DNA from: Armatimonadota bacterium
GTDB lineage: Bacteria; Armatimonadota; Zipacnadia; JAUWAU01
Length of the DNA stretch: 64,000 bases
Direction: 5' to 3'
NCBI GenBank assembly: GCA_030601885.1
Contig: JAUWAU010000022.1
Location: forward strand, 6,175-70,174
The position numbers and the translations under genes were made by a program. A model generated the notes under the pieces. That model saw only the letters and a program-made list of their open reading frames with translations. It was not told the origin of the DNA and made no database searches. This document shows, one piece after another, positions 414 through 54,703 of the stretch. Every line of letters starts with the position of its first letter. Within the stretch, counting starts at the first letter, position 1.

Positions 414-567
414 GGCGTCAGTGCCCCTTTCAGCGGAGTCGCGGTGCTTGTTTCGCCGTTGGTATCCCGTATGTCCTTCCGAGGCTGCGGTGTGTGGTCC
501 GAGAAAGAGGGTGGGGGCTGTGTGGCGAATAGGACCTGTTGGGCAACGTCTGCCAGGGAGGAGCATC

Positions 568-11276: not shown

Positions 11277-12722
11277 TTAGTCCTCGTCCTGCGTTTCGGC
11301 CGCGGACTCATCTTCGGCTCGCCGTCTGCGAAACAGGCGCACGAGAAGGGCAAGCACAGTGTGGGGACGCACGCGAACATGTACCACCTCGACCTTCCCC
11401 AACTCCATGTCCTCGGGCAACTCGAGCGACGGCGTTTTCGCCAGCCCAAGCACTTGGCTGGGATAGACGCTGCGATGCCCGGCGATGAGGAAGGCCGCGG
11501 CGCAGCCCACGGCGGCGTACGTGCCAAAGGCGACACCGAGAGTCTCCAGTGCCATGACAGAGGCAGCAATGGGCGTGTTGGCTCCGGCGGACAACACGGC
11601 GAACATACCCATCGCTGCGGTGAGAGACGAAGACACGCCGAAAAGGCGCCCCATAACGTTTCCCGCGGTGGCGCCGATGAAAAACATCGGCGTGATGATG
11701 CCCCCACTGCCACCCGTCTCCAGCGTCACTGTCGTTGCCAGGATCTTGAAGAGAAACGCCAGCGCGAAGATGTGTGCCCCGCTGAGGGCCCGGTCAATGG
11801 TGTCTACCCCCAGTCCGGCGTAGTCCGTTCCAGCGACAGAGAGAAGCGCCGCGACGACGACTCCCCCTGCGGCGCCCAGGAGCAGCGGTCGCTTTCTGAA
11901 GCGTTCCGCGACATGCACTACGAGGTGCTGCACTTCCATGAGTACCACGGCGATCAGGCCGAAGAGCAGGCCGGCGCCCAAGCCCAGGGCCACGAGGGCG
12001 CCATGCGAGAGCTCGGTGCCGCCCACGATTGCCGGGCTCACGGGGTGCACTTCGCCGCAGACGAGGTGCGCCACCATGCCCGACACGAGGCAGGGAAACA
12101 ACACCTGATACTCGAGGCGCCCAAGGTATAGCACCTCGATGCCGAAGAGCGCCCCGGCCAGGGGCGCCCCAAACACGGCGGCAAAGCCGCCACTGATCCC
12201 GCACACTACCAGTCGGCGGCGGTCGATGTCCTCCAGGCGAAGGAGATGGGCGGTGCCCGAGGCAAGCGCTGCGCCGATCTGCGCCGATGGCCCGACTTTC
12301 CCCACTGATCCGCCACAGGCCGCTGTGATCACAGTGGTCACGAACTTGACGGGGGCGATCCTGGCCTGCAGCTTGCCGCCGCTCTCGTGCAACGCGCGAA
12401 TGACCGGCTCGGCGCCCCGCTGCGCCGCCTCCGGAGCCAGCTTGTCAACGAGCCACGCCGCGAAGGGGATCGCGACCGGCAGAAGCCAGTAGAAGTGGGG
12501 GAGGCGGGCAATCGTGCCCGTGGCCGATTCTAGCGCCCACACAAAGCCGCGTGTGCTGCCGCCCGCCATCGCGCCCACCACCGAGGCAAGCGCCGCCCAC
12601 TTGATGATGCTCACCAGAAGCGTCGCCTCTTCAACCACAACCGAGCGCAGATGCTCTCGCTCCGTTGGCCGATGAGACTCCTCAGGGGTCACGATGCCGC
12701 CTCGCAATTTGCATGCTGCCAA
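11277..12722 (-). CDS. ClC-family voltage-gated chloride channel / H+-Cl- antiporter
   Basis: Multiple TM helices with ClC selectivity motifs GGSVGKVGP (GxxGxEGP-like) and GGSGGIITP (GxFxP-like). The start is uncertain: TTG at 12722 or GTG at 12692. Confidence 0.8.
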   Translation of the reverse strand: MAACKLRGGIVTPEESHRPTEREHLRSVVVEEATLLVSIIKWAALASVVGAMAGGSTRGFVWALESATGTIARLPHFYWLLPVAIPFAAWLVDKLAPEAAQRGAEPVIRALHESGGKLQARIAPVKFVTTVITAACGGSVGKVGPSAQIGAALASGTAHLLRLEDIDRRRLVVCGISGGFAAVFGAPLAGALFGIEVLYLGRLEYQVLFPCLVSGMVAHLVCGEVHPVSPAIVGGTELSHGALVALGLGAGLLFGLIAVVLMEVQHLVVHVAERFRKRPLLLGAAGGVVVAALLSVAGTDYAGLGVDTIDRALSGAHIFALAFLFKILATTVTLETGGSGGIITPMFFIGATAGNVMGRLFGVSSSLTAAMGMFAVLSAGANTPIAASVMALETLGVAFGTYAAVGCAAAFLIAGHRSVYPSQVLGLAKTPSLELPEDMELGKVEVVHVRVRPHTVLALLVRLFRRRRAEDESAAETQDED

Positions 12723-23011: not shown

Positions 23012-23058
23012 GGCGGCCACTCTCCGTGTGTGATGCTGTGAGTGCTTGACAGGTTGGC

Positions 23059-23087
23059 AGTGTAGCAGAAGGTGAGGTGGGGAGCAA
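23059..23087 (-). promoter_or_regulatory. Candidate sigma70-type promoter for the NTPase-TPR gene
   Basis: The minus strand reads TTGCTC, a 17-nt spacer, then TACACT, about 45 nt upstream of the proposed GTG start. Confidence 0.3.
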
Positions 23088-23123
23088 GACGGCAGTGGTT
23101 GGTGGATAGTGATTAGTGATAGT

Positions 23124-23146
23124 GAATTCCGGGGACATATAATGCC
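23124..23146. repeat. REP-like repeat copy A (left arm flanking the RAYT remnant)
   Basis: GAATTCCGGGGACATATAATGCC is the inverted partner of 23466-23490. The core is CCGGGGACATA(TA)ATGCC. Confidence 0.7.
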
Positions 23147-23189
23147 AATTTCTTGACATTCCACCCGGTGCCCTGCGACTCTGGCCCTT

Positions 23190-23466
23190 GTGGCACGGAT
23201 AGCGAGAGTTGTGCTTCCTGGAGTCGCCCACCACGTTACCCAGCGCGGCGTGCGGTCCCAGTTGCGTGCGATGCCGAGGAGCTTGTGGGGATACGGGACT
23301 GGCGGGAGTTGTTGCGAGCGATCCGGCGGAGGTGGCCAAGCTGCGGGAGAAGAGCCGGAGGGGTCGCCCGTGCGGGAACGAGGAGTTCGTGCGTTGGGCC
23401 GAGGGCGTGACGGGCCGTCGTCTGCAGCTGCTCTCCCCGGGCCGCCCCCGCAAAGGGGAGAAATAG
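23190..23466 (+). pseudogene. Remnant of a REP-associated tyrosine transposase (RAYT / IS200-like Y1 transposase), internally deleted and frameshifted
   Basis: Frame 0 starts MARIARVVLPGVAHHVTQRG, a typical RAYT N-terminus. Frame +1 ends ...RRGRPCGNEEFVRWAEGVTGRRLQLLSPGRPRKGEK, a typical RAYT C-terminal tail. Only about 92 codons remain in total, and the HUH/Tyr catalytic core is missing. Confidence 0.65.
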
Positions 23467-23490
23467 GCATTATGTCCCCGGATTTCCGTG
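23466..23490. repeat. REP-like repeat copy B (right arm flanking the RAYT remnant); overlaps the last codons and stop of the TIR gene
   Basis: GGCATTATGTCCCCGGATTTCCGTG; its reverse complement CACGGAAATCCGGGGACATAATGCC matches copy A. Confidence 0.7.
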
Positions 23491-24762
23491 TTTCTTCATG
23501 AAATCGGGCCCGGGGAGCTCAGCAAAGTCGGTCACGACCTCCTGCACTCGTTCCGGAGATGCCTCACCATGGCGAGCCACAAGCTTACGCAGGCTCTTAC
23601 TGATAATGTGGGTCGCCACGTAGTCCGGATCGCCGAAGATGCTTTCCAGACCGGCTGATGCTATGGCGCAGCCCAATGTCCCTATGGCCCGATCTGCGAT
23701 GGGGGCAGCACGATAGGCCTGCGAATCCGCGGTCTTCACCAGGAGTCTAACATATTGCGGCCAGAGGCTGCGGGGCATCGCCGCGGCTGCCGCCACAAGT
23801 CCGCCCGTGAGCTTGTTCATCGCGTCGAACTGGCAACTGTCGATGAGAGATATCACATCCACGAACAGCATGTGGAGAACGTGCTCCTCCGATGTGGCCA
23901 GCAATTCGGATTCGAGACATGAGAGGGCGTCGGCCTTTACGTCTAGGGAGCCGCTCAACACTACGCGCCGAGTCGCTTGTGTCATCAGGACGCCAACTCG
24001 GTCACGCCGGAGGAGTTGTGCATCCCCTGCTACCTGAGAGATGAACGAAAGCGCCAGTCGTCGCGTGCTTGAGTCGTCGTCGCAAACGTGGGGCGATACC
24101 AAGTCTATCACGGCCGCCCGGTCGCTCTCCGATAGTAGCGACAGCCTAGCGTTGATGCCATCGCCGTGGGCTTCCCAGCGGAGGATCGTTCGGGCTGTCT
24201 CCCTCGCCAGGCAGCTGGGCTGGGGCAACGACACATCTGGCGGATGCCTCAGCTTGGCAGTGCCCTGGGCTGCGGGGCCGGGCGCTCGTGCGTCCTGGCT
24301 TTGGAGGGGGATGGGTTGGGACGCGCCGTCGCGGGGACGGCGAGCCTCGGCCACGATGGCGTTCAGGAGGCCCTGGTAGGCTTCGCTGTAGGGGTTGGTA
24401 GCGAAGTCGGCGTACTTGCGAGCCTTGAGGTAGCCGGGGAGGTTGCAGTCCTCGATGACGCAGGCCAGGATGAACCGCTTCTTCTTCTCGCGGATTTGCC
24501 TCTCGATGGCCTCCCGGAGCTCCTCCTGAATCCACGGGCGCTTGACCGAGGCCTTGGAGAGGACGGCGATGACGAAGTGCGCCTCGCCGATGGCGGTCTG
24601 GATCTCGTCGGGAATGGAGTCGCCGATGTGCAGTTTGGCTTCGTCGGTCCATACCTGACAGCCATCGCGCTCGAGATCGGCCCCGAGCTTCTCGACGAAT
24701 TCGTGGTCGGCGCTTGTGTGGCTGATAAACACCTTGGGCCTTGTTGGTTGGTCAGGATGCAT
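23470..24762 (-). CDS. TIR-domain protein with an uncharacterised, about 270-aa alpha-helical C-terminal region
   Basis: MHPDQPTRPKVFISHTSADHEFVEKLGADLERDGCQVWTDE...HFVIAVLSKASVKRPWIQEELREAI is a TIR fold with the W-x-x-E-E-L putative catalytic Glu retained. ATG at 24760-24762. GC looks lower than in the neighbours. Confidence 0.8.
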   Translation of the reverse strand: MHPDQPTRPKVFISHTSADHEFVEKLGADLERDGCQVWTDEAKLHIGDSIPDEIQTAIGEAHFVIAVLSKASVKRPWIQEELREAIERQIREKKKRFILACVIEDCNLPGYLKARKYADFATNPYSEAYQGLLNAIVAEARRPRDGASQPIPLQSQDARAPGPAAQGTAKLRHPPDVSLPQPSCLARETARTILRWEAHGDGINARLSLLSESDRAAVIDLVSPHVCDDDSSTRRLALSFISQVAGDAQLLRRDRVGVLMTQATRRVVLSGSLDVKADALSCLESELLATSEEHVLHMLFVDVISLIDSCQFDAMNKLTGGLVAAAAAMPRSLWPQYVRLLVKTADSQAYRAAPIADRAIGTLGCAIASAGLESIFGDPDYVATHIISKSLRKLVARHGEASPERVQEVVTDFAELPGPDFMKKHGNPGT

Positions 24763-24825
24763 GGCACCGGGCCTCAGAAAGCGTTCTGTATAGCAATGCG
24801 ATTGTATGTAGGAGATTCGACGGAG

Positions 24826-24849
24826 CACGCGGGTGGGCCTGCCCGCGTG
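24826..24849. promoter_or_regulatory. Perfect 8-bp inverted repeat (CACGCGGG-N8-CCCGCGTG) upstream of the TIR gene
   Basis: Read directly at 24826-24849, which is 64-87 nt upstream of the TIR start. It could be an operator, or a terminator insulating the gene from the repeats. Confidence 0.3.
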
Positions 24850-25274: not shown

Positions 25275-26570
25275 TCAGAGGGTCTGCAGGAACCGGTCGA
25301 TCTGCCGGGCGGCCTGGGTGAAGCGCGTCTCTGCGAGGGACATTGCGTCGTTGAGATATGCGAGGGCTGTGTCGTGGTTGTTGTGGATGTCCATGAGGCG
25401 ACTGGCGACCTGGTCGCCGTCGGTCTGCTCGATCTCGAAGACCCATTTGGGGACGCCGATGTCGTACCACATCTGTCCCTTGATCGTGTCCTGGGGCTGG
25501 CGGAGGTAGATGGCGGGCGTGCCGTGGGCGAAGGCGATAATGGGTGAGTGGCACTCGAAGCTCAGAATGGCGCGGGCACGCCGGTAGACCGATCCGGCTT
25601 CGTCGGGGAGCCAGTACTCCTCGCGGCGAACCACGTGAGGCTTGACGTCGTCGGGCAGGGGATCGATGAGCAGCTCCTGGATGATGTCGAGCTCGTAGGT
25701 CATCTCGGGGCAGGCGAGCACCTTGTTGCCGGTCTCACGCACCCAGCGGATCATGGCTTCGCGAGCTTTCGCGTGGTCGAGCTCGGCCCACTTCTCGTTG
25801 AGCTCGGTCACCGAGTGGATCTTCTCCTCGGTCCACTTCACCCGGGGCTTGAACTTGTAGTACGGGGTCACGCGGAGGCGGGGCACGACGCAGATGAAGC
25901 GGCCCTCCTCGAGCCCGTGTGATTCCATGAACGCAGCCGCGCGGTCCTCGTCCCGCAGGTCGATGGCGAATGTCCCGTCGGGGCAGAATGCGCGCACGGG
26001 CTGCTCGACGCCGGCGTCCTTGAGGTGATCCAGGGATTTGGTCTCGCGGGTGTATATGAAGGCGGCCTGTGAGAGAATCCTGCGCGTGCGGTCGTCGGGA
26101 GTCTGGGTGGTGATGCCCCAGGCTCCGTACGGCTTGCCGGTGAACGCCAGCCACGCTTCGACATCGCGCGACGCCACCAGGCTCGGCCCGGAGCCATGGA
26201 GGAGGAGATGGGCCTGCTCGACGGCATTGGCGAGGGAGTCGTTGTCGGGTCCGTGCTTCGCGTCGAGCTTCCCGCTGACGATCTCGACCTGAGGAAACCG
26301 TCGATGGAGCATTGGCTCGACGCCGCGCTCCAGCGCGTTCGCCCAGAGGATCGCGCGATGGTGTGGGAGGAGCTCCTCGAGCAGCCTCAGCACGCCGGCC
26401 GTGTGAGCGATGTCGCCGATGTTCTCCGTCTGCCAGCCGGAACGGAGGAGCAACGTTCTGCGCGTGGGCTCAGTAGCCATCAGTCGGCTCGGACAGCCGC
26501 CGACGATCGCTGCCATGCCAGCGAGGAAGCGGCGGCGGGAGTGTTGGTTTGCATGGGTCTCTGGATGCAT
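25275..26570 (-). CDS. Polysaccharide pyruvyl transferase family protein with Tat-type signal
   Basis: MHPETHANQHSRRRFLAGMAAIVGG is a twin-arginine signal. The body (GWQTENIGDIAH...LLLHGSGP...) resembles the pyruvyl transferase fold. An alternative GTG start lies at 26594. Confidence 0.7.
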   Translation of the reverse strand: MHPETHANQHSRRRFLAGMAAIVGGCPSRLMATEPTRRTLLLRSGWQTENIGDIAHTAGVLRLLEELLPHHRAILWANALERGVEPMLHRRFPQVEIVSGKLDAKHGPDNDSLANAVEQAHLLLHGSGPSLVASRDVEAWLAFTGKPYGAWGITTQTPDDRTRRILSQAAFIYTRETKSLDHLKDAGVEQPVRAFCPDGTFAIDLRDEDRAAAFMESHGLEEGRFICVVPRLRVTPYYKFKPRVKWTEEKIHSVTELNEKWAELDHAKAREAMIRWVRETGNKVLACPEMTYELDIIQELLIDPLPDDVKPHVVRREEYWLPDEAGSVYRRARAILSFECHSPIIAFAHGTPAIYLRQPQDTIKGQMWYDIGVPKWVFEIEQTDGDQVASRLMDIHNNHDTALAYLNDAMSLAETRFTQAARQIDRFLQTL

Positions 26571-26607
26571 GGCTTGCTGGTCAAGTCGTGCCACACGGCG
26601 CGGTGCG

Positions 26608-27285
26608 TCACTTGGCCGGCTCGAGGGCGATGTTGCGGAACTCGATGGGCGCGCCTTCGCTCTGTAGGCAGATCTTGCCGCTGGTGACGTTGCAGTCGGT
26701 GGCTTCGTTCTGCAGCAGGCCGTTGATGGAGACGCGAATGGTGTCCCCCTGGCAGACGGCCTCGAAGACGTTCCACTCCCCCGGCGGCTTCTCGTTGCTC
26801 TCGTGCTTCTTGGGGACGCGGCGACCCTCGACCCCTATGTGCTCCTTGAGCTCCGTGCCGCCAATGAGCCAGAAGTCGCCGGCGTTGCCGTTCGCGAGTT
26901 GCCCCTCGATGCTCCGGGGCCAGACCTTGTCCGGTTCGCTCATGTGCATGAGCACGCCGCTGTTGCCGGGCTTCTCGCCCGCCCAGCGCCATTCGAGGCG
27001 GAGCTTATAGTTCGCGTAGTCAGTGGTGGTGCGGATGTATCCCCTGGGGTTGCCCACGCAGTGGATGACGCCGTCCTTGACCGACCACACCTCACTCACA
27101 TCGTAGTCCGGCTCCTTGAGGAACATCTTCCATCCGGTGAAGTCCTTGCCGTTGAACAGCTCGATCTTCTTCTGGGGCACGACGGGCGGCGCGCTGGTGC
27201 CTTCCGATGTCCCCTCCTGCGCCACGCCCACCGTCACGGCAAGCAATAGCAGGCCTAGCCCGGCGAGCAGTACTGTGCGCTTCAT
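26608..27285 (-). CDS. DUF1080 (3-keto-disaccharide hydrolase-like) secreted protein
   Basis: MKRTVLLAGLGLLLLAVTV is a signal peptide. LFNGKDFTGWK...VKDGVI...NYKLRLEWR...NSGV...ICLQSEGAPIEFRNI is the classic DUF1080 pattern. ATG at 27283-27285 follows GGAAAGGAGA. Confidence 0.85.
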   Translation of the reverse strand: MKRTVLLAGLGLLLLAVTVGVAQEGTSEGTSAPPVVPQKKIELFNGKDFTGWKMFLKEPDYDVSEVWSVKDGVIHCVGNPRGYIRTTTDYANYKLRLEWRWAGEKPGNSGVLMHMSEPDKVWPRSIEGQLANGNAGDFWLIGGTELKEHIGVEGRRVPKKHESNEKPPGEWNVFEAVCQGDTIRVSINGLLQNEATDCNVTSGKICLQSEGAPIEFRNIALEPAK

Positions 27286-27302
27286 CGTGGTCTCCTTTCC
27301 GT

Positions 27303-28586
27303 TCACAGCAGATCCCTGTAGTTGGCCACGACCTTGCCGAATGCCTCGATGTATTGATCCAAGAAGCCCTCCTTCGGGTCGATGTAGGCCGGCAGCCGCA
27401 GGACGCGCTCGTGGAGGCCCTCCGAGATGGGGAAGTCGCCGGGCTTGTGCGGCTTGAAGTTCTGGTTCAGCGGGTGGCGGTTGTTGCCCCAGATGTCGAA
27501 GCCCTCGGTGTAGATGGTCCGCAGGTGCTCCATGTGGCCGACCCCGGGGCCCGAGACGGGCGCACCCTCGGCGTGCACCGCCTGCACGAAACGCTTGGCG
27601 GGCAGTCCGTCGAGCTCCTCCGGGTTGTAGATGAGCCGCAGACCGCCGTAGAAGCCGGCCGGCCGGGCCTTCGGGTAGTCGTGAACCGGCTCGATGCCGG
27701 GAAGCTCCCGCAGCGCGTCGAAAATGATCTTGCGGTTCTGCCGGCGGCGCTCGTTGCGATACACGAGGGTGGAGAGCGATACCTTGGCGAGGGCCAATGC
27801 CAGTGGATGGGCCCGCCACTTCAGGCCGAGCACCTGGCTGTCGAGCTTCGCGTACTCGGGGAGGGTCAGCTCGTCCACGACACCCTTGCGGTGCAGATGG
27901 CAGAAGACGAGCTGGCGCTCGTACAGCTCCCGATCGTTGGTGCACACGATGCCGCCCTCGCCGCCGGAGACCGGCTTGCCGCCCGGGTCAGTTCCCTGGA
28001 GGCTGAAGCAGGCGATGTGGCCGACATTGCCGATCTTGTTGCCGTCCCATTCGGAGCCGTGTGCGTGAGCCGCATCCTCGACGACGACGATGTCGTGCTT
28101 CTCCGCCAGCGTCAACAGGCCGTCCATGTCGCACGGCCGGCCGCACATGTGAATGGGGATGATGGCCCGCGTGCGCTCCGTGATTCGCTTCTCCACGTCC
28201 GCCGGATCCATGAGCAGCGTCTTGGGGTCGATCTCGCAGAACACGGGGATGGCGCCCAGATGCAGCGCGCCGCAATAGGAGCCGATGTAGCCGGCCGTGG
28301 GCGTGATCACCTCATCCCCCGGGCCAATGCCGGCCGCCCACAGCGCACTGTGCAGCCCGGTGGAGCCGTGGTCAATGCTGAGGCAGTACTTGCAGCCGAT
28401 GAACTCCCGAAACTCCTCCTCGAACTCCAGCGGCAGGCCCGCTCCTGCGCCGGAAACAGCCCCCTCGTCCAGTAGCTTGCCCACGAGCTCCTTCTCCTTC
28501 TCAATCGGCCGCTTCCATTGCTCGCCGCTGCTGATAGTGACTACCGGCGTGCCGCCGAGCATTGCGAGCTGTGACGCGCTTGACAT
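27303..28586 (-). CDS. DegT/DnrJ/EryC1/StrS-family PLP-dependent aminotransferase
   Basis: 427-aa ORF; LGGTPV..., DEVITPT..., VVEDAAHAHGS are typical family motifs. ATG follows GAGGAG. Confidence 0.9.
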   Translation of the reverse strand: MSSASQLAMLGGTPVVTISSGEQWKRPIEKEKELVGKLLDEGAVSGAGAGLPLEFEEEFREFIGCKYCLSIDHGSTGLHSALWAAGIGPGDEVITPTAGYIGSYCGALHLGAIPVFCEIDPKTLLMDPADVEKRITERTRAIIPIHMCGRPCDMDGLLTLAEKHDIVVVEDAAHAHGSEWDGNKIGNVGHIACFSLQGTDPGGKPVSGGEGGIVCTNDRELYERQLVFCHLHRKGVVDELTLPEYAKLDSQVLGLKWRAHPLALALAKVSLSTLVYRNERRRQNRKIIFDALRELPGIEPVHDYPKARPAGFYGGLRLIYNPEELDGLPAKRFVQAVHAEGAPVSGPGVGHMEHLRTIYTEGFDIWGNNRHPLNQNFKPHKPGDFPISEGLHERVLRLPAYIDPKEGFLDQYIEAFGKVVANYRDLL

Positions 28587-28676
28587 CAGAATTGCACTCC
28601 TCTTCGGTGCGTATGGTCCATGCCGGAGCCCGAGTCCTCACGAGGAGGCCGACTCCTGGACCGTGGCTCTCGTGAG

Positions 28677-29750
28677 CTAATCGTAGCTTGGCGGTGCTGG
28701 TGGCTCGACTCCGGGTGGCGGCGGAGGCGGCTCCTCTCGCCACCGTCGCAGGCGGAAGTCCACCATCGTTGTGCTGCGCGGTCGAACGCCGATCTCCCGG
28801 CTTTGCGGGGCGTACCCCTCCGCGAACACTCTGACGACCGCTGGGCCGGCGGGCACGTTGAGGCTGTAGTGGCCACGGGCGTTCGTAAGCGTCGAGAACT
28901 CCGGCCGTATCGGCGGCGGGAAGATGTCCGGCGTCACCCCTATGGCGTCGGCCACTTCCTCCAGTTCGTCATCGAGGATAATGGGCCACCACGGGAGCTC
29001 CGGCGTCACTGTCACGCGGGCGCCTTCGAGAGGTATGGCGCCGGTCTCGTTCATGCCGTACACTCTGCCCTCGACCGTACCCACGCCCTCCGGGGGCGCG
29101 GGCCAGAGCACGAAGTCGGCCACGGCGGTGTGACCCGGCTCGACGTGGACGAATCTGATGCCGCCTCGCAGGCCCGGCACTGATACCGTGACGACGTACC
29201 CGCCCGGCGGCACGGCGCGCATGTCGTAGACGCCGTCCTCGTCGGTAAAGACCACGATGGGTGGCTCATCGCTCGGGGTCGGCAGCTCGTCGTTGCGGCC
29301 GCCGCTGTCGAGATACAACGGCCCCGGTGTCGCCACGACTTCGACGTCCGGAAGCGGCTCCAGCAGGCCGTTCTCCGTGCGCTTGGTCACCGTGCCGGTG
29401 ATGCGGCCGCCGAGCCTCGGGTCGAGCGTGCCGAGGTCCGTGTCCTGCCCCTCCTGAACGACCACTGCAGCATAGACTCCCCAGATGCCATCGGGCGCGA
29501 TGAGGCAGATGACGTGCTCCCCGGGCGCAACGCCGGGCACGCGAAATGCGCCGCTGGCGTTCGGACGCCGGGTCAGCTCCTGTCCGTCCAGGTAGATGGT
29601 GTAGCCTTGCGGCTGGCTGTCAGCGGCCAGCGTGCCCACGATGCTGCCGCCGGTCGGTGGGTTCAGTGCTTCATGCGACGATCCGCCGCACCCGACTAGC
29701 AGCAGCACAAGAGCGAGCAGCAGGCCAGAACACGGCAGGGCGCTTCTCAT
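28677..29750 (-). CDS. Lipoprotein with carboxypeptidase-regulatory-like (Ig/prealbumin-fold) repeats and a Pro-rich tail
   Basis: MRSALPCSGLLLALVLLLVGCGG is a lipobox. Repeated G-x-V...DGxY...PGxY segments follow. ATG at 29748-29750. The upstream track ORF extension was rejected. Confidence 0.65.
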   Translation of the reverse strand: MRSALPCSGLLLALVLLLVGCGGSSHEALNPPTGGSIVGTLAADSQPQGYTIYLDGQELTRRPNASGAFRVPGVAPGEHVICLIAPDGIWGVYAAVVVQEGQDTDLGTLDPRLGGRITGTVTKRTENGLLEPLPDVEVVATPGPLYLDSGGRNDELPTPSDEPPIVVFTDEDGVYDMRAVPPGGYVVTVSVPGLRGGIRFVHVEPGHTAVADFVLWPAPPEGVGTVEGRVYGMNETGAIPLEGARVTVTPELPWWPIILDDELEEVADAIGVTPDIFPPPIRPEFSTLTNARGHYSLNVPAGPAVVRVFAEGYAPQSREIGVRPRSTTMVDFRLRRWREEPPPPPPGVEPPAPPSYD

Positions 29751-29984
29751 ACCTACTCCCTCCTCATACGAGCAGTGCTCGGTGTTCAGTTGTGCGCCGG
29801 CTGTCCCTACTGATCTCAGCGACCGGTACCGGCAGCTCGCGCCATGGCCCAAGGCGGTTGCCTCTCGGAACAGGTCTTCGCCGTGAGGCCCCACAAGCCC
29901 TTCAGCAGTGACTTCAATTGCTACCATCAGTTGCCCCGGTCGCGAGTGGAGGAGCATCGCGTCAGTGGGAGGAAGCACCGCAGC

Positions 29985-37763: not shown

Positions 37764-37855
37764 GCTGAGTCTGGGAGCCTACGAAGATGGGCTCCCCCCA
37801 GCAAGTTCGTGCCTGCCGCTAGCTTTCCTTCAGCCTGGTGTGTAGGGGTGAGCGC

Positions 37856-39474: not shown

Positions 39475-39945
39475 GTGCGTGACAGCAGCGCCTTGGTGCG
39501 GGTACTGGAGAAGCTGCGCATCAGGAAGCGCGGCCCCGAACTCACGCGCGAGCAGGCTATGAACGCCCTTCCGCTCCGCAACCCGAACCTGAAGTGGCGG
39601 GGTAACGACCGGGGCGACGTGGTGGTCACCCTCACGCGACGCCGGGACGTCAGGGGCCGGCTGGTCTCCTTCTTCTTTCACGTTCCCAAATCGCGTGACA
39701 TAACACTCGACGAGGTGGGCTCGAAGGTCTGGACGCTGAGCAACGGTCGGCGCACAGTGACGGAGCTCATCGACACGCTGGCGACGGAGTACAAGCTCAA
39801 CCGGCGCGAGGCCGAGGTGTCGCTCACCGAGTACCTCCGGCAGCTCGGCCAGCGAGGGATGGTGGGGTTGTTGGTGGATAAGGAGGACATGGAGGAGACA
39901 GACGCTCAGAAGGGGACCGCAGAGGCGGAGGAGTCGGAGGAGTAG
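39475..39945 (+). CDS. PqqD-family (RiPP-recognition-element-like) small protein with acidic tail
   Basis: ITLDEVGSKVWTLSNGRRTVTELIDTLATEYKLNRREAEVSLTEYLRQLGQRGMV matches the PqqD winged-helix pattern. Confidence 0.55.
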   Translation: MRDSSALVRVLEKLRIRKRGPELTREQAMNALPLRNPNLKWRGNDRGDVVVTLTRRRDVRGRLVSFFFHVPKSRDITLDEVGSKVWTLSNGRRTVTELIDTLATEYKLNRREAEVSLTEYLRQLGQRGMVGLLVDKEDMEETDAQKGTAEAEESEE

Positions 39946-40080
39946 GGGCACACATTGGCGGCGTTTGCTCCGACGATGCGTCTTAGGTTCCTGTGACCCG
40001 AGGTACGTGTGGGAAGGTGTTTCCGGATATCGTGGGAGCCACGGGCGTCGGATCGTCGCTGCGGTGGCAGGTCGCAGTGG

Positions 40081-40109
40081 TTGAAAAACACGAGCTGCTC
40101 TGGTACACT
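40081..40109 (+). promoter_or_regulatory. Candidate sigma70-type promoter of the TerB/ATPase/helicase cassette
   Basis: TTGAAA (40081-40086), a 17-nt spacer, then TACACT (40104-40109). Confidence 0.35.
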
Positions 40110-40252
40110 GGTTGTGACACAGTTGGATGGCCCTGCCGCTGAGGAGGTCCCGGCGGGACGGGCGCTGGAGGGTTCAAGGCGCGACCCCGTTTTGGACTCG
40201 GGTGGAAGTCCGGAACGGCAAACGGTGGCAGTTCTCGGGAGCGGGATGCAGC

Positions 40253-42740
40253 GTGAAGGCACTGCTCGTACTGGCGCTATTGATCGGGGCCGTCTGGTAC
40301 GTGTGGTGGGTCTGGCGTCAGGCCCAGGAGGGGGCATTCGCGTCGAGGGCTAAAGCCCGCCGGCGGAGTGGTGCGGCGGGAGGGGAGGCTGAGCTGCGAG
40401 CGTACGTAGCGGCGATGCGAGCGGATGGGCGATCCGAGCACGAGATACGAATCGTCTTGCTACGGGCGGGATGGCCTGCATATCTGGTTGAGCCCTTGGT
40501 GGGCCCTGCGCCAACGGGAAGCCCCGCCGCAACACGGAGCCGGAGTGTTCCTGCGGGGGCCTCATTGCACGGGCAAACAACTGAGGCCCGGGTGGGAAGT
40601 GTCGGTCCTGACGAGTGCTGGGTCCCCCCCGGGGGACAGACCCTTGTGGCTGGGCGGACGATCGGGGGGGGGGATGATCTATGTGGGGCGAGGCCTCGCA
40701 TCGGTTGGGAGCTCTGCGTTGCCTGAACCCGCGCTGATCGATCCAGCCCTCCCGGTAGGGGACAGCTCTCTGGGGAGACCGGCCACGTGGCCATACTGGC
40801 CGTCCTACGGGAGCATCTCGCCAGACTGCCGTGCCACCTATCTGGACTGGCTCGCGGATGGACGAAGGGATCCCGCCGTTTCGATCGGCTGCGTGTTCCT
40901 GTTCTACTACGGCCTGGAACGCAGGCTCTTGGCGGATCCGTCTACATCGCACCGCGCGAGGGCGCAGCGCTCGGCTCTTGTACAAGAAGTCGAGCGCTTG
41001 CTCGGCATCTACAAATGGCACAGCGCCCTCGTCGGGTACGCTACGGACTTGCTCGACCTCCTGGGCGTGGAGGGGGCGAGGGCGGGGGTGGGGGATCTCA
41101 CGGCGCCGAATCTGTGGACCGGCGAGGCCCGGGCGGTACAGGAGTACCTTCAGACATCATACTTCTCCAAGGACACCGCGCGGGTGAAAGTGGGCCTGGC
41201 CACGATCGTGGCGGCAGGCCGTCCTGTGCCCTGGGACTGGGCACTGGCGTGGTACTGCAGCAGCCCCGAACGGAGCTTCCGGACTCCCGCGTGGCGGTGC
41301 GGGGATGAGTTTCGGGCACTCTTCCGCGCTCGATTTGATGAGCGGTTCGGAGACGGACTTGCGGTGAAGCCGAACAAGACGCGGCTCAAGGCTAAGTACC
41401 GACCTGCGAGTTCATCCTTCTGGCGCGAGGTCTCTGCGTGCGCAGAGGACCTCTGCGACGTCACTCGTCAGAGAGTGCCACTGCGCAAGGTGGCAGCTCT
41501 TGTCGAGGACTGCCAGACGGAGCTGGATGGCTACTCACGCTGGTTGGGTCGCAACCCGGGTGGACGTGGAACGCTCCCGGGCATCGCACTTCTGCCGGAG
41601 GAAGTCGTTCGCACGATTACGTTTGACGAGCTTGAGGCACTGCGGTCCTGCCTCGACGACATGCTCGGCAAGTCGAGATCAGTCGTCGTTGGGGCCCAGA
41701 GCCTGATGGAGCGTTGGCCGTCAGGTGACAAGGAGCGCTTTGCGAAGCGAGATGCCGTCGGACTGGCCCAAGCCGTGAGCAAGTGCGGCTATGGGATCGA
41801 GCCGGACGCGCGCTTCGGCGGGACGACCCCCAAGGCCGAGGATCCGCTGGTGGTGTTCCGACTCCCTGAGGGTTCGCCGACTGTCCCGACCGAGTCGTAC
41901 CTCGCTGCCGTGTTCGCGGTACGCCTATTCATCGCGGTGGCCCTCGCCGACGGGAGGGTCAGCGACGGTGAGCACCAGGAGATCGTGGGGTACCTGAAGG
42001 CGAGTACGCCCCTGACGCCCGCCGAACGCGTGCGCCTCCGCGCCCACTCCCGCTGGCTCGTGTGTGTGAAGCCGGGGCTGACTGGAATGAGGCGGAGGAT
42101 GGCCGGGCTCACGGCCGAGGAGCGTGCGGCATTGGGCGGCATGCTAGTTGCGGTAGCAGGCGCAGACGGAGTCATAGCGCCCCCAGAGGTGGCCGCACTG
42201 ACGAGAATCTACCGGTTGCTGGATCTTCGGCCGGAGGAGGTCCATCAGGATATCCACGCACTGGCGGCTTCGGCCGCGTCGCCGAATGACCCCGTAACTG
42301 TCGCAGAGGCCGACCTAGGCTCGTCGGGATTCACGATACCTTCCGCGCCCGGGCACCGGGAAGATGAGCCCGACACCATCACGCTCGACATGGATCGAGT
42401 GCGGGCGAAGCTAGCCGAGACCGAGAGGGTCGCGGTGTTGCTTGGGAGCATCTTTGCTGAGGATGAACAGCCGGGAGGGATTCCCCCGGCTGCGGGGGAG
42501 GAGGGTCCTCTCGCGGCCGGTCTTGACTCAGCCCATTCGGCTCTACTGCGAAGGTTGGCGAAACGCGAATCTGTGGATAGAGCGGCCTTTGAGCGCCTGT
42601 GTGAAGACTGCTCTGTCCTGCCCGACGGGGCCCTTGACGCTCTCAACGATGCAGCCTTGGATGCCTGCGAGGAGAGCCTGTGCGAGGGTGATGACCCCAT
42701 CGAAATCAACCAGGAGGTTCTTGAGGAGATGGTGGCGTGA
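40253..42740 (+). pseudogene. TerB-N / TerB / TerB-C domain protein (Shango SngA-like), reading frame broken in a G10 tract
   Basis: The upstream frame (GTG 40253 or ATG 40127) encodes the TM helix KALLVLALLIGAVWYVWWVW and ...CWVPPGGQTLVAGRTIGGG. The downstream frame continues MIYVGRGL...EPALIDPALPV...WPYWPSYGSISPDCRATYLDWL...FLFYYGLERR (TerB-N). This is followed by a TerB-like segment (IAVALADGRVSDGEHQEI) and TerB-C (ALLRRLAKRESVDRAAFERLCEDCSVLPDGALDALND). Removing one G from the tract joins the two frames. Confidence 0.75.
40664..40673. repeat. Homopolymeric G10 tract at the frameshift site (a C7-G5 tract lies 34 nt upstream at 40624-40635)
   Basis: Counted directly: atc-GGGGGGGGGG-atgatc. 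Confidence 0.95.
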
Positions 42741-44101
42741 GCGAACTCCCGCGGATTCGGCCGAAGGATCGGGATGCCATCTTGCAGTCGCTACGGGCCG
42801 GTGTCGTGCCGCGCGCTGGGCAGCAGCACATTCAGGTGGGGCGGGTGGAGGAGGTAAAGGCCCTCCTTGCGGACCTGGAGCGGATCGTCGACGGTGGATC
42901 GGCAATGCGCTTCGTCATCGGCGAGTATGGATCCGGCAAGACCTTCTTCCTCTACCTTGTTCGGTCCATCGCGCTCAGCAAGCGCCTGGTGACGGTTCAC
43001 GCGGACCTGACCCCGGATCGGCGCCTTCAGGGCAGCGGAGGCCAACCGCGTGCGCTGTACGCTGAGTTGATGCGCAACATGGCGACCCGCTCGAAGCCGG
43101 ACGGAGGTGCACTGTCGAGCGTCGTCGAGCGATTCGTTAGCTCCGCGCTAAGCGAGGCCCGGGCGGCGGGCAGCGCCCCCGAGGTCGTGATACAGCGGAG
43201 GCTGACGGATATCTCTGAAATGGTGGGGGGATACGACTTCGCGCAAGTCGCTGCGGCCTACTGGCGGGGTCACGACACTGGCAACGACATTCTCAAGTCC
43301 GACGCGATCCGTTGGCTGCGCGGGGAGTTCTCGACTAAGACGGACGCGCGGCGGGCGCTCGGGGTCCGCACAATAATAGATGACGCGAATGTCTACGACC
43401 ACCTCAAGCTCTTGGCCCGTTTCGTGCGCCTCGCTGGGTTCGAGGGCCTTTTCGTCTGCCTGGATGAACTGGTTAACCTCTACAAGCTCGCCAACACTCA
43501 GGCTCGGAACGCCAACTACGAACAGATCCTCCGGGTCCTCAACGACAGCCTGCAGGGAGTCGCGGTAGGGCTAGGTTTCTTACTCGGAGGTACCCCGGAG
43601 TTCCTGACCGATACGCGCAAGGGACTGTATAGCTACCCGGCCCTCCAGTCACGCCTTGCGGACAACACCTTTGCCGTAGGCGGACTGGTGGACTACTCTG
43701 GGCCGGTGCTCCGGCTGGCCAACCTCACGAGGGAGGAGTTCTTCGTCCTCCTCGACAAGCTGCGGCACCTCCAGGCTGGTGGTGATCCCCAGGGGTACCT
43801 CGTGCCCGACGAGGCCCTGACGGCATTCATGGATCACTGCGCCAGACGCGTGGGCGACGCGTACTTCCGCACGCCGCGGGAGACCATCCGAGAGTTCGTC
43901 GGGTTGCTGGCCGTACTCGAACAGAATCCCCAGGCGTCGTGGCAAGAGCTTGTCGGCGGGGTCGAAATCGGGCATGAGGTCAATCCTGACCTCGTTCCTC
44001 TCCCCGATGAAGGCGAGTCGGGCGAGGGCGCACAATCCGCCGTGAGCGTGCCCGCGAGAAGCGACATCGCCAATGATGAGCTTACCACGTTCAGGCTCTG
44101 A
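42737..44101 (+). CDS. P-loop ATPase, DUF2791-like (Shango SngB-like)
   Basis: ILQSLRAGVVPRAGQQHIQVGR...MRFVIGEYGSGKTFFLYL contains Walker A. LFVCLDELVNL is Walker B. The GTG start overlaps the upstream stop (GTGA). Confidence 0.75.
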   Translation: MSELPRIRPKDRDAILQSLRAGVVPRAGQQHIQVGRVEEVKALLADLERIVDGGSAMRFVIGEYGSGKTFFLYLVRSIALSKRLVTVHADLTPDRRLQGSGGQPRALYAELMRNMATRSKPDGGALSSVVERFVSSALSEARAAGSAPEVVIQRRLTDISEMVGGYDFAQVAAAYWRGHDTGNDILKSDAIRWLRGEFSTKTDARRALGVRTIIDDANVYDHLKLLARFVRLAGFEGLFVCLDELVNLYKLANTQARNANYEQILRVLNDSLQGVAVGLGFLLGGTPEFLTDTRKGLYSYPALQSRLADNTFAVGGLVDYSGPVLRLANLTREEFFVLLDKLRHLQAGGDPQGYLVPDEALTAFMDHCARRVGDAYFRTPRETIREFVGLLAVLEQNPQASWQELVGGVEIGHEVNPDLVPLPDEGESGEGAQSAVSVPARSDIANDELTTFRL

Positions 44102-46328
44102 CGCGGAACAGCGGGAAAGCTCGGCGTTTGCCCATCTTCACGAGAAGGTCCAGCGCTGGGTCTGGAGCCGCCGGTGGCGCGAACTGCACGACGTGCAGGA
44201 ACTGGCCGTTGAGCCGATCTTGGCGAAGGCCGATGTCATCGTCGCGGCTCCCACGGCGGGCGGCAAGACAGAAGCGGCATTCCTTCCCATCTGCTCCAGC
44301 CTCATGGGCGATGCGCCGGACGGCGTCGTGGTGCTGGCGGTGAGCCCCCTCAAGGCCCTGATCAACGATCAGTACGATCGCCTCGAACCCTTCTGCGCGA
44401 CCCTCGGCATCAGCGTGCATCGGTGGCACGGCGACGTCTCTGCCGGGACGAAGCAGCGGCTCTTGCGGGAGCCCTCAGGTGTTCTTCTGATCACCCCCGA
44501 GTCCCTTGAGGCCCTGTTCGTGCTCCACGGTACCAAGCTGGCGCGCGTGTTCGCCGGTCTGAGTTACGTGGTCGTGGACGAGTTGCATGCATTCATCGGC
44601 AGCGAACGCGGCCGACAACTGCAGTCGCTGCTCCATCGGGCCGAACTGCTGCTCCGGCGGCACGTGCCAAGGATCGGGCTCAGCGCCACTCTCGGCGACA
44701 TGCGGCTCGCGGCCGACCACTTACGCCCGGGGGCAGCGGAGAAGGTCAAGCTCGTTGTCTCAGCCGGGACGGGCCAGCAGATCAAACTGCTCCTGCGTGG
44801 GTATCGGGATACGCCCCCGGGGCCGGGCGAGGCTGACGCGGCTAGCGGCGACACCCAGGGCCCTCAGAGTGATCCCCCCAGCGCTGATGTGCGAGCTATC
44901 GCCGAGAACTTGTTCGCCAATCTCCGGGGCCGTCACCATCTCATCTTTGCCAACAGCCGGAGCAGCGTCGAGCAGTATGCCGATCTCCTGAGGCAGCTCA
45001 GCGACCAGCGGCGCCTACCGAACGAGTTCTTCCCACACCACGGCAGCTTATCGAAGGAGCTTCGTGAGGACGTCGAGGCGCGGCTGAAGGACAAGACCCG
45101 CCCGACGAGCGTCGTCTGCACGAGCACGCTGGAGCTGGGCATTGACGTGGGTGACGTTGAGAGCATCGTGCAGATTGGGACTCCACCGTCGGTGGCGAGC
45201 ATGAGGCAGCGACTTGGGCGCTCCGGGCGCCGCGAAGGCCAAGCGGCAGTCCTGCGGCTCTTCATTCGAGAGCCGGAACTCACGGAGCGGAGCCCGCCGC
45301 AAGACTACTTGCGGGCCGAACTCGTGCAGGCGACCGCGATGGTGCGCCTACTCGTTGCTGGGTGGTGCGAGCCGCCCACGGAGGGCGCACTTCACTTGTC
45401 CACTTTGGTCCAGCAGCTACTCGGGCTGATCGCTCAGTACGGGGGCGTGCGCCCCCAAGAAGCCTGGGGGGCCCTCTGCGGAAGCGGCCCGTTCGGCGGC
45501 GTCAACCAACGGCTGTTCGCCAAGTTCCTGCGCGCCCTGAGCGAACACGACTTGGTCGAACAAGCAGCCGACGGCGCTCTGCTGCTTGGTGTGCGTGGCG
45601 AGCGAATCGTCAACCACTATAGCTTCTACACTGCATTCATGTCGCCGGAGGAGTACCGCATTATCACCGGCACGCGCACACTCGGCACGATCCCGATTGA
45701 CTATCCTCTGGTGGAGGGCATGTACATCATCTTCGCCGGACGCCGGTGGGAAGTGGTCAGCGTCGATCCGGGGGGCAGGGCCGTCGAGGTCGTGCCCGCG
45801 GCCGGCGGGCGGCCTCCGTCCTTCGGCGGCACCGGTGCCTCAGTGCACGATCGCGTCCGCCGGGAGATGCTGTGCATCTACCAGTCTACGGAGATACCCG
45901 CCTTCCTGGATGCCACGGCCCGGGAGCTCCTCGCGGAGGGCCGAGCCGCGTTCGCCCGGTACGGCCTGGGTCAGCAACGTTGGCTCCAGCACGGGGACGA
46001 CTGCCTGCTCTTTCTCTGGGCTGGGGACCGCGTCATGAACACGGTGCTCCTGCAGTTGGTGGCCCGGGGCCTGAAGGTCACGCAAGACGGCATCGCGCTC
46101 ACCATCGAGGACGCGACGACGGCTGAGCTGTCCATTCATTTGAAAGCACTGGCCGACCAAGGCCCCGCTGGCGGTGAGACGCTTGCCTCGGTGGTCCAGA
46201 ACAAGCGCTCGGAGAAGTACCATTGGTGCCTAACCGAGGAGCTACTGAGTCGAGACTACGCGTCGCGCTGGTTGGACGTCGCTGCAGCGCACCAGGTAAT
46301 CGAACGGTTGGCGACATCACCGCTGTGA
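44073..46328 (+). CDS. DEAD/DEAH-box superfamily-2 helicase, Lhr-like (Shango SngC-like)
   Basis: VQELAVEPILAKADVIVAAPTAGGKTEAAFLP is motif I. VVVDELHAF is motif II (DExH). GLSATLG is motif III. TSTLELGIDVG and QRLGRSGRR are motifs V and VI. The start overlaps the upstream gene by 29 nt. Confidence 0.8.
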   Translation: MMSLPRSGSDAEQRESSAFAHLHEKVQRWVWSRRWRELHDVQELAVEPILAKADVIVAAPTAGGKTEAAFLPICSSLMGDAPDGVVVLAVSPLKALINDQYDRLEPFCATLGISVHRWHGDVSAGTKQRLLREPSGVLLITPESLEALFVLHGTKLARVFAGLSYVVVDELHAFIGSERGRQLQSLLHRAELLLRRHVPRIGLSATLGDMRLAADHLRPGAAEKVKLVVSAGTGQQIKLLLRGYRDTPPGPGEADAASGDTQGPQSDPPSADVRAIAENLFANLRGRHHLIFANSRSSVEQYADLLRQLSDQRRLPNEFFPHHGSLSKELREDVEARLKDKTRPTSVVCTSTLELGIDVGDVESIVQIGTPPSVASMRQRLGRSGRREGQAAVLRLFIREPELTERSPPQDYLRAELVQATAMVRLLVAGWCEPPTEGALHLSTLVQQLLGLIAQYGGVRPQEAWGALCGSGPFGGVNQRLFAKFLRALSEHDLVEQAADGALLLGVRGERIVNHYSFYTAFMSPEEYRIITGTRTLGTIPIDYPLVEGMYIIFAGRRWEVVSVDPGGRAVEVVPAAGGRPPSFGGTGASVHDRVRREMLCIYQSTEIPAFLDATARELLAEGRAAFARYGLGQQRWLQHGDDCLLFLWAGDRVMNTVLLQLVARGLKVTQDGIALTIEDATTAELSIHLKALADQGPAGGETLASVVQNKRSEKYHWCLTEELLSRDYASRWLDVAAAHQVIERLATSPL

Positions 46329-46505
46329 GGGGCGGCCGGGCGGCGCGTCGGGGTTGTTGGTAGACAAGGACGAAATGGAGGAGGCAGAAACGGAGAAGAC
46401 CTCCTCCAAAGCCGAGTTATCGTCTGAGGACGAGTAGCCGCGTGCGCCGGTCGGCGCGCCGCCCCGAGTCCATCCCCCCGTGGCTTCGCCACGTCACAAG
46501 GCTGC

Positions 46506-47390
46506 CTACCGCTGGTCGCTCACCTCTCCGGCCCTCGGGGCGCCGGGCTTGATGGACTTGAGGAACTCCACGGCCCGGGTGATGTCGCCGACAGGGTCGT
46601 CTCCGGTCTCGCGCTCGATGGCATAGTAGCCGTCGTAGCCCTCGTCCATCAGCGACTGCACGTACACAGGCCAATCGACCCAGCCGGAGCCCAGCGGGAC
46701 CTCCCTCCGCGTGCCGTCCTCCCGCACGAGGGCGTCTTTGGCGTGGGTGTGCACGATGTACTCCCCGAGCACCTTGACGCCGTCCATGGGCTGGAACTCC
46801 TCCCACGCCTCCTTTCGGTCGTACTGCTCGCCGCGCTCGGCGAAGAGCCGAACCGGCCAGAGGATGAGGTTGCCGGGATCGTAGTTGACTCGGAGCCCGG
46901 CGCTGCCGATGTCCTCGATGAGCCGCTTGAGCACCTTGGGAGGCTCGGGGCCGGTCTCGATGGCCAGGCACGCGCCGACGCTCTCGCCGTACCGCGCGAT
47001 CTGTCCGGTCGAGTCCAGGAACACGTTCCAGCGCGGATCGCTGGTGTCCGTGGGCATCACGCCGACGTGGGCCTGCCAGATGTTGCACTCGAGGTCAATG
47101 CTCATGTCCAGAATGCGCTTGGCCCAGGCGATGTTGTGCTCCGCCTCGTCGGCATCGCCCAGGTCCACCTTCCCGCCCCAGGCCGAGACGGCCGACACCT
47201 CGAGGCCGAGGGAGCGGATGTGCTCCAGGAGCGTCTTGCGGGCGGCATTGTCCATGTTCTCCGGCGCAAAGGGTCCGCCACCTATGCTGAGGTGCAGCCC
47301 GGGCACCCCCATCTCGACGACCTTTTTCATGCCCTCGTACGGGTCCATCTTGAGGTTATTGAGCATCACGGCGATCTTCAGGTCAGACAC
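46506..47390 (-). CDS. Sugar phosphate isomerase/epimerase (xylose isomerase-like TIM barrel)
   Basis: VSDLKIAVMLNNL...; HTHAKD and YAIERE are motifs typical of the AP endonuclease 2/xylose isomerase-like fold. GTG at 47390 lies 8 nt after GGAGG. The upstream 119 codons of the track ORF were rejected. Confidence 0.8.
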   Translation of the reverse strand: MSDLKIAVMLNNLKMDPYEGMKKVVEMGVPGLHLSIGGGPFAPENMDNAARKTLLEHIRSLGLEVSAVSAWGGKVDLGDADEAEHNIAWAKRILDMSIDLECNIWQAHVGVMPTDTSDPRWNVFLDSTGQIARYGESVGACLAIETGPEPPKVLKRLIEDIGSAGLRVNYDPGNLILWPVRLFAERGEQYDRKEAWEEFQPMDGVKVLGEYIVHTHAKDALVREDGTRREVPLGSGWVDWPVYVQSLMDEGYDGYYAIERETGDDPVGDITRAVEFLKSIKPGAPRAGEVSDQR

Positions 47391-54614: not shown

Positions 54615-54703
54615 TGGTGCCGGAGGTGGGAGTTGAACCCACACGAGACTTGCGTCCCACTGGATTTTGAGTCCAGCGCGTCTGCCAATTCCGCCACTCC
54701 GGC
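54615..54703 (-). tRNA. tRNA-Leu (anticodon CAA), type II with long variable arm, CCA encoded
   Basis: The reverse complement reads GCCGGAGTGGCGGAATTGGCAGACGCGCTGGACTCAAAATCCAGTGGGACGCAAGTCTCGTGTGGGTTCAACTCCCACCTCCGGCACCA. The acceptor stem GCCGGAG pairs with CTCCGGC. The anticodon stem is CTGGA/TCCAG with loop CTCAAAA. The T-loop is GGTTCAACTCC. Confidence 0.92.

Follow-up and report, generated by a model that had tools for sequence, protein, structure and literature searches.

Shango is an anti-phage defence system described in Pseudomonas aeruginosa PA14 (PA14_RS11735-45) and, independently, in Escherichia coli (Johnson et al. 2023, PMC10250203; Millman et al. 2022), and these are the only two systems in which defence has been assayed. 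The system is composed of a TerB-domain protein, SngA, a P-loop ATPase, SngB, and a superfamily 2 (SF2) DExH helicase, SngC. The same three families are encoded in the same order on a 64,000-nucleotide (nt) stretch of DNA from an Armatimonadota bacterium (assembly GCA_030601885.1, contig JAUWAU010000022.1), hereafter the window, to whose positions all coordinates refer unless another record is named. The cassette found there is very probably a canonical Shango operon that was acquired horizontally as a 6.5-kilobase (kb) insert at the 3' end of a PqqD-like gene and whose first gene, sngA, is frameshifted within a run of 10 guanines (G10), leaving the system off or inactivated. The window copy differs from the PA14 and E. 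coli systems in the phylum of its host, in the signal-anchor helix of its SngA, in the frameshift of sngA, in being known here from sequence, and in its setting, a small two-gene slot and not a large defence island.

The TerB domain was first described in tellurite resistance. Millman et al. 2022 proposed membrane surveillance through TerB, and a 2025 preprint still calls its role unclear. An earlier note on this DNA, made from the sequence alone, had stated that the mechanism of Shango is essentially unknown, in agreement with a literature that reports phenotypes only and with the absence of solved structures. Two other defence proteins, BnzA of Bunzi and DinB of Dionysus, carry a TerB domain that has likewise been proposed to serve in membrane surveillance, and Bunzi is also membrane-anchored. 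The partner in Dionysus is a pore-forming toxin, whereas in Shango, which has no obvious toxin, the TerB protein is paired with an ATPase and a helicase.

Similarities extend to type 2 BREX, or Pgl, in which BrxD resembles SngB and BrxHI resembles SngC, such that PF10923 and a clade of Lhr-like helicases are common to both systems. The TerB protein of the window takes the place of the PglX methyltransferase, PglZ, and the PglW kinase. Membership in type 2 BREX was rejected, as none of these three proteins is encoded in the 6.6-kb strain-variable segment that contains the cassette or by its neighbours. Pgl also contains a G tract, which lies in pglX and not in the gene for the ATPase or helicase partner.

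Identity and organization of the operon

Four open reading frames (ORFs) on the + strand make up the cassette: 40127-40726 (199 residues), 40425-42740 (771 residues), 42737-44101 (454 residues, GTG start), and 44073-46328 (751 residues). The first two are pieces of a single split sngA, and the last two are sngB and sngC. The top PADLOC match of each protein is the corresponding Shango model (2.8e-84 for frame-repaired SngA, 1.2e-176 for SngB, and 1.7e-269 for SngC, the last aligned over profile positions 3-718 of 720), and the runners-up are BrxD for SngB (1.6e-42) and BrxHI for SngC (1.7e-134). In Pfam, frame-repaired SngA matches TerB_N (3e-41), TerB (3e-13), and TerB_C (9e-21), SngB matches PF10923 (now BrxC_BrxD, formerly DUF2791) over the full length of the profile (1.3e-152), and SngC matches DEAD and Helicase_C domains. 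All three models are thus represented in adjacent, co-oriented genes, with sngA split, and the locus is a member of the Shango family but a disrupted copy.

The genes are tightly packed. The stop codon of sngA and the start codon of sngB overlap by 4 nt as GTGA (42737-42740), and sngB and sngC overlap by 29 nt (44073-44101). A candidate sigma-70-like promoter, TTGAAA-17-TACACT with an extended -10 TG, lies just upstream on the + strand at 40081-40109; it is the sole + strand match in 7.6 kb, where 0.5 matches would be expected on both strands combined.

The catalytic motifs of SngB and SngC are intact in the sequence. SngB (42737-44101), assigned as a BrxD-like ATPase by PADLOC and Pfam, contains a Walker A motif, GEYGSGKT (42920-42943), and a Walker B motif, FVCLDE (43451-43468). 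SngC (44073-46328) contains SF2 motifs I (44247-44279), II (DELH, 44571-44594), III (SAT, 44679-44696), and VI (45207-45233), and its assignment as an Lhr-like helicase draws on PADLOC, on sequence matches in the PDB, and on Foldseek. Its closest solved relatives are Lhr (5v9x, phmmer 4e-28; also 7lhl) and MrfA (6znp), with which it appears to share the DExH core together with winged-helix and C-terminal domains. The AlphaFold2 model of SngC (predicted local distance difference test, pLDDT, 82.6) superposes over its full length on Lhr 5v9x, with a Foldseek E value of 2.6e-29 and a template modeling (TM) score of 0.70 over about 770 residues. SngC is nevertheless only ~21% identical to Lhr, Pfam detects in it no Lhr-specific domain, neither a DUF1998 domain nor the Lhr C-terminal extension, and, unlike Lhr and MrfA, it resides in a mobile three-gene operon, where it is coupled through the 29-nt overlap to a BrxD-like ATPase. 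A published classification places SngC with the defence helicases BrxHI, DruE, and DpdJ, in a clade apart from Lhr (PMC12278908).

Most of what the earlier note had read from the letters thus stands: both gene overlaps, the P-loop ATPase as second gene, the DExH helicase with its SF2 motifs as third gene and its Lhr-like character, on which sequence and predicted fold agree, the promoter, which is real as a consensus match, and the equation of the triad with Shango. The Pfam search that it had suggested for TerB_N, TerB_C, and DUF2791 recovered all three, and TerB as well. Its description of the first gene as a membrane-anchored TerB-N/TerB/TerB-C protein holds for the domains, once the frame is repaired, and fails for the single gene, the anchor and the TerB domains being in different frames. 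It also understated this disruption, as the frameshift makes the system as sequenced probably non-functional.

A strain-specific insertion

The cassette lies in a strain-variable segment of 6.6 kb (39888-46506) between the 3' end of the PqqD-like gene (+ strand) and the stop codon of an AP_endonuc_2, or xylose-isomerase-like, gene (- strand). The insertion between a PqqD-like gene and a sugar isomerase that the earlier note had described is borne out by a sister strain (GCA_054773435.1), which is 97-98% identical in nucleotide sequence on both flanks and from which the cassette is absent. The DNA polymerase I encoded in the window has its greatest similarity to those of Armatimonadota metagenome-assembled genomes. 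Homology to the sister strain and to four metagenome contigs ends at 39887, within the last 20 codons of the PqqD-like gene, and picks up at 46507, at the stop codon of the convergent AP_endonuc_2 gene.

The same slot in the sister strain is filled by 1,295 bp of unrelated sequence containing a 231-residue ORF of unknown function, which has no Pfam match. This ORF is bracketed by two 95-nt palindromes, 99% identical to each other, at 10486-10580 and 11607-11701 of the sister-strain record (L084 in our numbering), each consisting of 30-nt perfect arms (AATTCTGGGGACACCATACTTAATTCTTGG) around a 35-nt loop. The palindrome is also present in L082, L087, and L088 and absent from the window, and two Logan contigs break inside it. 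Two further metagenome contigs diverge again past the first palindrome, and the slot therefore has at least three states.

A direct repeat of 49 nt marks the two ends of the cassette. Copy 1 (39864-39912, + strand) lies inside the 3' end of the PqqD-like gene and contains a 21-nt core, GGGGTTGTTGGTGGATAAGGA. Copy 2 (46350-46398, + strand, continuing to 46437) begins 21 nt past the sngC stop codon and encodes a relic PqqD C-terminal tail, GLLVDKDEMEEAETEKTSSKAELSSEDE followed by a stop codon, for which the counterpart in the relatives is GLLVDKEEAEEAADEAVSESEPTADDE and a stop. A repeat search found the copies to be 82% identical at a spacing of 6486 nt, and of the core (GGGGYTGYTGGTNGAYAAGGA) the window has two copies and each relative has one.

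These observations are consistent with the cassette having recently been inserted by horizontal transfer, or swapped in for another, at a site prone to recombination. Horizontal insertion is favoured by the sharp boundaries, by the repeat of the PqqD tail, by the atypical glycine codon usage of sngA (GGG at 43%, as compared with 23% in the rest of the window), and by the occurrence of homologs on plasmids. Judged as an integrative island, the segment shows presence and absence between close strains and flanking direct repeats and lacks an integrase of its own. A tRNA- or integrase-linked island was rejected on the latter ground and because the only transfer RNA (tRNA) gene (Leu, 54615-54703) is 8 kb away. 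The neighbouring genes, PqqD, Laminin_G_3, SnoaL, AP_endonuc_2, and CNNM, are housekeeping genes and do not form a defence island.

The frameshift in sngA

The two sngA pieces are joined in a single frame by deletion of one G from the G10 homopolymer at 40664-40673 (+ strand), which corresponds to about codon 138 of 828 and encodes the Gly-Gly-Gly of the TerB_N motif xI(P)GGM[IL]YVG; a tract of G9 or G12 would be in frame. The 5' fragment (40127-40726, + strand, in the frame of ATG 40127) encodes, besides the anchor, a short helical region and the initial 15 residues of TerB_N before it runs out of frame to a TGA codon. The first TerB_N residues in this 199-residue piece are CWVPPGGQTLVAGRTIGGG, and their continuation, MIYVGRGL, is found in the other frame, that of the 3' part (40674-42740, + strand, in the frame of the ORF that opens at 40425), which is supported by Pfam, PADLOC, and AlphaFold2. 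On the joined gene, Pfam places TerB_N at 40625-41291, TerB at 41919-42245, and TerB_C at 42357-42728 (all + strand), with a middle α/β region between TerB_N and TerB.

The predicted transmembrane signal-anchor helix, KALLVLALLIGAVWYVWWVWR (40256-40318, + strand), read directly from the sequence, is followed by a Lys/Arg-rich stretch. The true start of sngA is likely GTG 40253, to judge from the sequence of the closest ortholog (locus L002, from an Armatimonadetes metagenome-assembled genome), which can start only at the homologous GTG; ATG 40127 is the less likely start for the same reason. The AlphaFold2 model of SngA has a mean pLDDT of 85.7 and a helix predicted over residues 2-39, and a comparable N-terminal hydrophobic helix is present in about a third of the SngA homologs sampled. 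Conservation within TerB extends to its two acidic ADG...E motifs, and residues D566, E573, D638, G639, and E645 are invariant or nearly so. When solved structures were sought for SngA and SngB by sequence and by profile, only the TerB domain was matched, and a Foldseek search with the complete SngA model yielded nothing beyond TerB-like matches and noise. A long SngA is canonical, as judged from the triad on a Klebsiella plasmid, which encodes proteins of 769, 438, and 731 residues.

The same G10 tract is present in a Logan contig from SRR14872663 that is 100% identical to the window over 18.7 kb. Between the window and the sister strain there are no gaps over 17.4 kb, and indels elsewhere are intergenic only. 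With so few indels relative to close relatives, a generic homopolymer error of assembly is unlikely, and the +1 frameshift in sngA is very probably real. As a consequence of the frameshift, SngA is split, its anchor is separated from its sensor domains, and translation ends ~2 kb before the sngA/sngB overlap, so that translational coupling into sngB is probably lost and the system as sequenced is probably off or inactivated. Both sngA pieces are otherwise open, which argues that the lesion is recent or reversible.

The tract itself is specific to this lineage, as far as the sequences compared can tell. The closest ortholog has an intact sngA of 821 residues with only G6 at the tract position, and other SngA homologs encode the motif xIPGGM[IL]YVG with mixed glycine codons. 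Across 79 other loci (456 kb of cassettes), the sng genes contain no homopolymer run of at least 9 and no homopolymer frameshift, and the idea that such tracts are a general Shango feature was accordingly rejected. A C7 run (40624-40630), located 34 nt upstream of G10, encodes the Pro-Pro of a conserved W-x-P-x-G motif, and 6 of the 17 G/C runs of at least 6 in the window fall inside the 6.2-kb cassette. In a Nonomuraea sp. locus (L050, 6521-8556), sngA seems to be split in two frames near a G6 run, and this may be another disrupted sensor gene; for the splits in three further loci (L003, L014, and L032), the records have stretches of N at the same places, and these cases are uninformative.

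Three rival readings concern the frameshift. One, which we regard as rather doubtful, is that a pseudogene in decay is all that is left of the cassette, and that with the frameshift a system that is costly or of no use has begun to be lost for good. In favour of decay, turnover of defence systems is rapid, sngA is disrupted, and strains that are ~97-98% identical in the flanks have filled the slot in at least three different ways. The G10 frameshift is, however, a single lesion in 6.2 kb; no more stops or indels are found in the sngA pieces, sngB, or sngC, and any inactivation must therefore be very recent.

Another reading, which appears unlikely, is that G10 is a contingency locus, at which slipped-strand mispairing turns sngA, and with it by coupling the entire operon, on (G9 or G12) or off (G10), as in the phase-variable defence of Streptomyces Pgl. 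Pgl switches at frequencies of 1e-2 to 1e-4 via the G tract in pglX (PMC4365076), and type 2 BREX has homologs of SngB and SngC, BrxD and BrxHI. The position of the tract, early in the ORF, is usual for contingency tracts, its length sets the frame, and one slip would restore the gene. Slippage is also seen in the same population at an intergenic C6 run (37794-37799, between CLP1_P-like and SnoaL-like genes), which is C5 in three related assemblies. A variant, included in the same estimate, holds that slippage alternates the membrane-anchored full-length SngA with a soluble form re-initiated at ATG 40674. The numbers of G/C runs of lengths 5 to 10 in the window are 108, 14, 2, 0, 0, and 1; G10 exceeds every other homopolymer in the 64 kb and stands out from the decay of run lengths. 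A codon-based null, however, expects ~0.1 such tracts per window, and three consecutive GGG codons have a probability of ~8% for this tripeptide at the GGG usage of sngA, with no selection needed; the statistical case for a selected tract is therefore not compelling.

The sequences compared also lend switching no support. A search of 5.8 billion protein clusters with the repaired SngA, made for an intact G9 allele, gave only the window's own truncated call and, as the next match, an ortholog at 53% identity, and a scan of metagenome contig DNA for tract variants from G7 to G13 found none, in a lineage represented by essentially one sample. The orthologs, as described above, have not kept the tract. 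If switching does take place, Shango would have its first reported case of control by a contingency locus, in parallel to Pgl, the type 2 BREX system.

A further reading, somewhat less probable again, is that the additional G is a sequencing or assembly artefact, that the real gene has G9, and that this Shango is intact and active. Long G runs are the most error-prone context on most sequencing platforms, the tract is the sole disruption in the cassette, and the catalytic motifs of SngB and SngC are all intact. Against an artefact, G10 was called by two different assemblers, and a comparison of >30 kb with independent assemblies revealed no frameshifting indels in coding sequence.

Several points weigh against an inactivated, horizontally acquired Shango operon as the account of this locus. 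The comparison was made between assemblies rather than on read-level data, and a consensus error at a 10-G run may be present; the window assembly and the Logan contig may, moreover, have been built from the same reads, as the artefact reading would also have it. The direct repeat copies are only 82% identical. The segment 39888-46506 encodes only SngA, SngB, and SngC, and no integrase, transposase, or recombinase that could account for its arrival. With respect to function, no phage-defence assay exists for the window copy or for any Armatimonadota Shango, the effector or trigger is known for no Shango, and SngA and SngB are without solved structures.

Conservation across the Shango family

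A scan for SngB in species-representative genomes identified >578 loci, distributed over Actinomycetota, Chloroflexota, Myxococcota, Cyanobacteria, Acidobacteriota, Planctomycetota, Armatimonadota, and other phyla. For comparison, 80 of these loci (L002-L081) were kept. All three genes are present in 68 of the loci kept, and in all 68 they are arranged on one strand in the order A-B-C. The end of sngA falls within a few bases of the start of sngB in most loci. The overlap between sngB and sngC could be measured in 27 loci and amounts to exactly 29 nt in 21 of them, which indicates that both reading frames are constrained there. Homologs of SngB are also encoded on 700 plasmid records, chiefly conjugative plasmids of Klebsiella and Salmonella. 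A phage-borne Shango was considered and set aside, there being no SngB match in 50,697 phage records. The triad is thus a conserved neighbourhood, as the earlier note had expected, found in at least 68 genomes of many phyla and on hundreds of plasmids.

The three proteins are conserved to different degrees. Median identities to the window proteins are 38.5% for SngA, 68.8% for SngB, and 53.2% for SngC. Across phyla, SngB identities range from 65 to 82% (about 65% for the Klebsiella plasmid copies), and those of SngA range from 31 to 52%; the closest ortholog, L002, is 52% identical in SngA, 82% in SngB, and 71% in SngC. In some loci (L022, L023, L031, and L041), a single sngB is preceded by a tandem array of two or three divergent sngA paralogs, whose products are 28-39% identical to the SngA of the window, an arrangement that suggests several sensors feeding one ATPase-helicase engine.

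Proposed mechanism

For a cassette with sngA in frame, a mechanism can be sketched, whose functional steps we infer throughout and whose chain as a whole we put forward tentatively, as possible and somewhat short of probable. It builds on what is established for the locus, namely the family identity, the gene order and coupling, the intact catalytic motifs, the frameshift, and the strain-specific insertion. SngA would be held on the cytoplasmic face of the membrane by its N-terminal signal-anchor helix, the Lys/Arg-rich stretch after the anchor placing the bulk of the protein in the cytoplasm. There it may act, through TerB_N and TerB, as a variable sensor of phage entry or membrane perturbation; a sensor role is suggested by its being the most divergent of the three proteins, by its occasional occurrence in two to three tandem copies, and by the conservation of the acidic TerB motifs. 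The TerB_C domain or the middle region could relay the signal to SngB, the highly conserved BrxD-like ATPase, which would serve as an ATP-driven switch or assembly platform. SngB would then recruit or license SngC, a putative Lhr-like 3'-to-5' translocase, which may act on phage DNA or replication intermediates and thereby block replication. The cassette encodes no nuclease of its own.

A function other than defence would make the triad a membrane-linked stress or DNA-repair module, with metal or tellurite sensing by TerB coupled to an Lhr-type helicase. The solved proteins to which SngC is most closely related, Lhr and MrfA, function as DNA-repair helicases, TerB has its history in tellurite resistance, and the flanking genes are housekeeping genes rather than a defence island. 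This reading is nonetheless very improbable, given that the best matches are to experimentally validated defence models and not to Lhr, that SngC groups with BrxHI, DruE, and DpdJ, and that the cassette, as is typical of defence cargo, is confined to one strain, was acquired horizontally, and is carried on plasmids elsewhere.

Other features of the window

A TIR-domain protein of 452 residues is encoded at 23473-24828 (- strand), with matches to Pfam TIR_2 (2e-29) and to the PADLOC models PDC-S66, Aga_TIR, and ThsB-like. The start of the adjacent gene (20828-23470, - strand), encoding an 881-residue AAA_22 and TPR protein that resembles STAND NTPases, overlaps the stop codon of the TIR gene. 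Together, the two may constitute another defence pair in addition to Shango, as yet uncharacterised and located 16 kb upstream of it. A cell-surface polysaccharide cluster at 25278-29978 (- strand) encodes a pyruvyl transferase, a DegT aminotransferase, and a CarboxypepD_reg-domain protein, and a 1,226-residue β-helix/GDSL protein is encoded at 373-4050 (+ strand). Both are attributed to ordinary envelope biosynthesis, although they are potential determinants of phage receptors.

Implications

The window copy does not make the mechanism of Shango easier to study, and its frameshift, its insertion, and the regularities of the family would not surprise a specialist. Tract switching, if shown, would add a regulatory mode to a locus that is otherwise ordinary. 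For annotation, a defence census would count Shango in this window even though the system is probably off.

With this locus, Shango, a catalogued system, is extended to Armatimonadota, a poorly sampled phylum. The slot at the end of the PqqD-like gene offers a natural example of gain and loss, in which one strain has the cassette and sister strains have other cargo at the same position. Finally, conservation across the 80 loci provides usable constraints on the mechanism of Shango: SngB is the most conserved of the three proteins, SngA is the most variable, and the 29-nt overlap is close to invariant. This gradient, together with the tandem sngA genes and the near-invariant overlap, points to SngA as a specificity sensor and to SngB and SngC as a fixed, stoichiometrically coupled engine.

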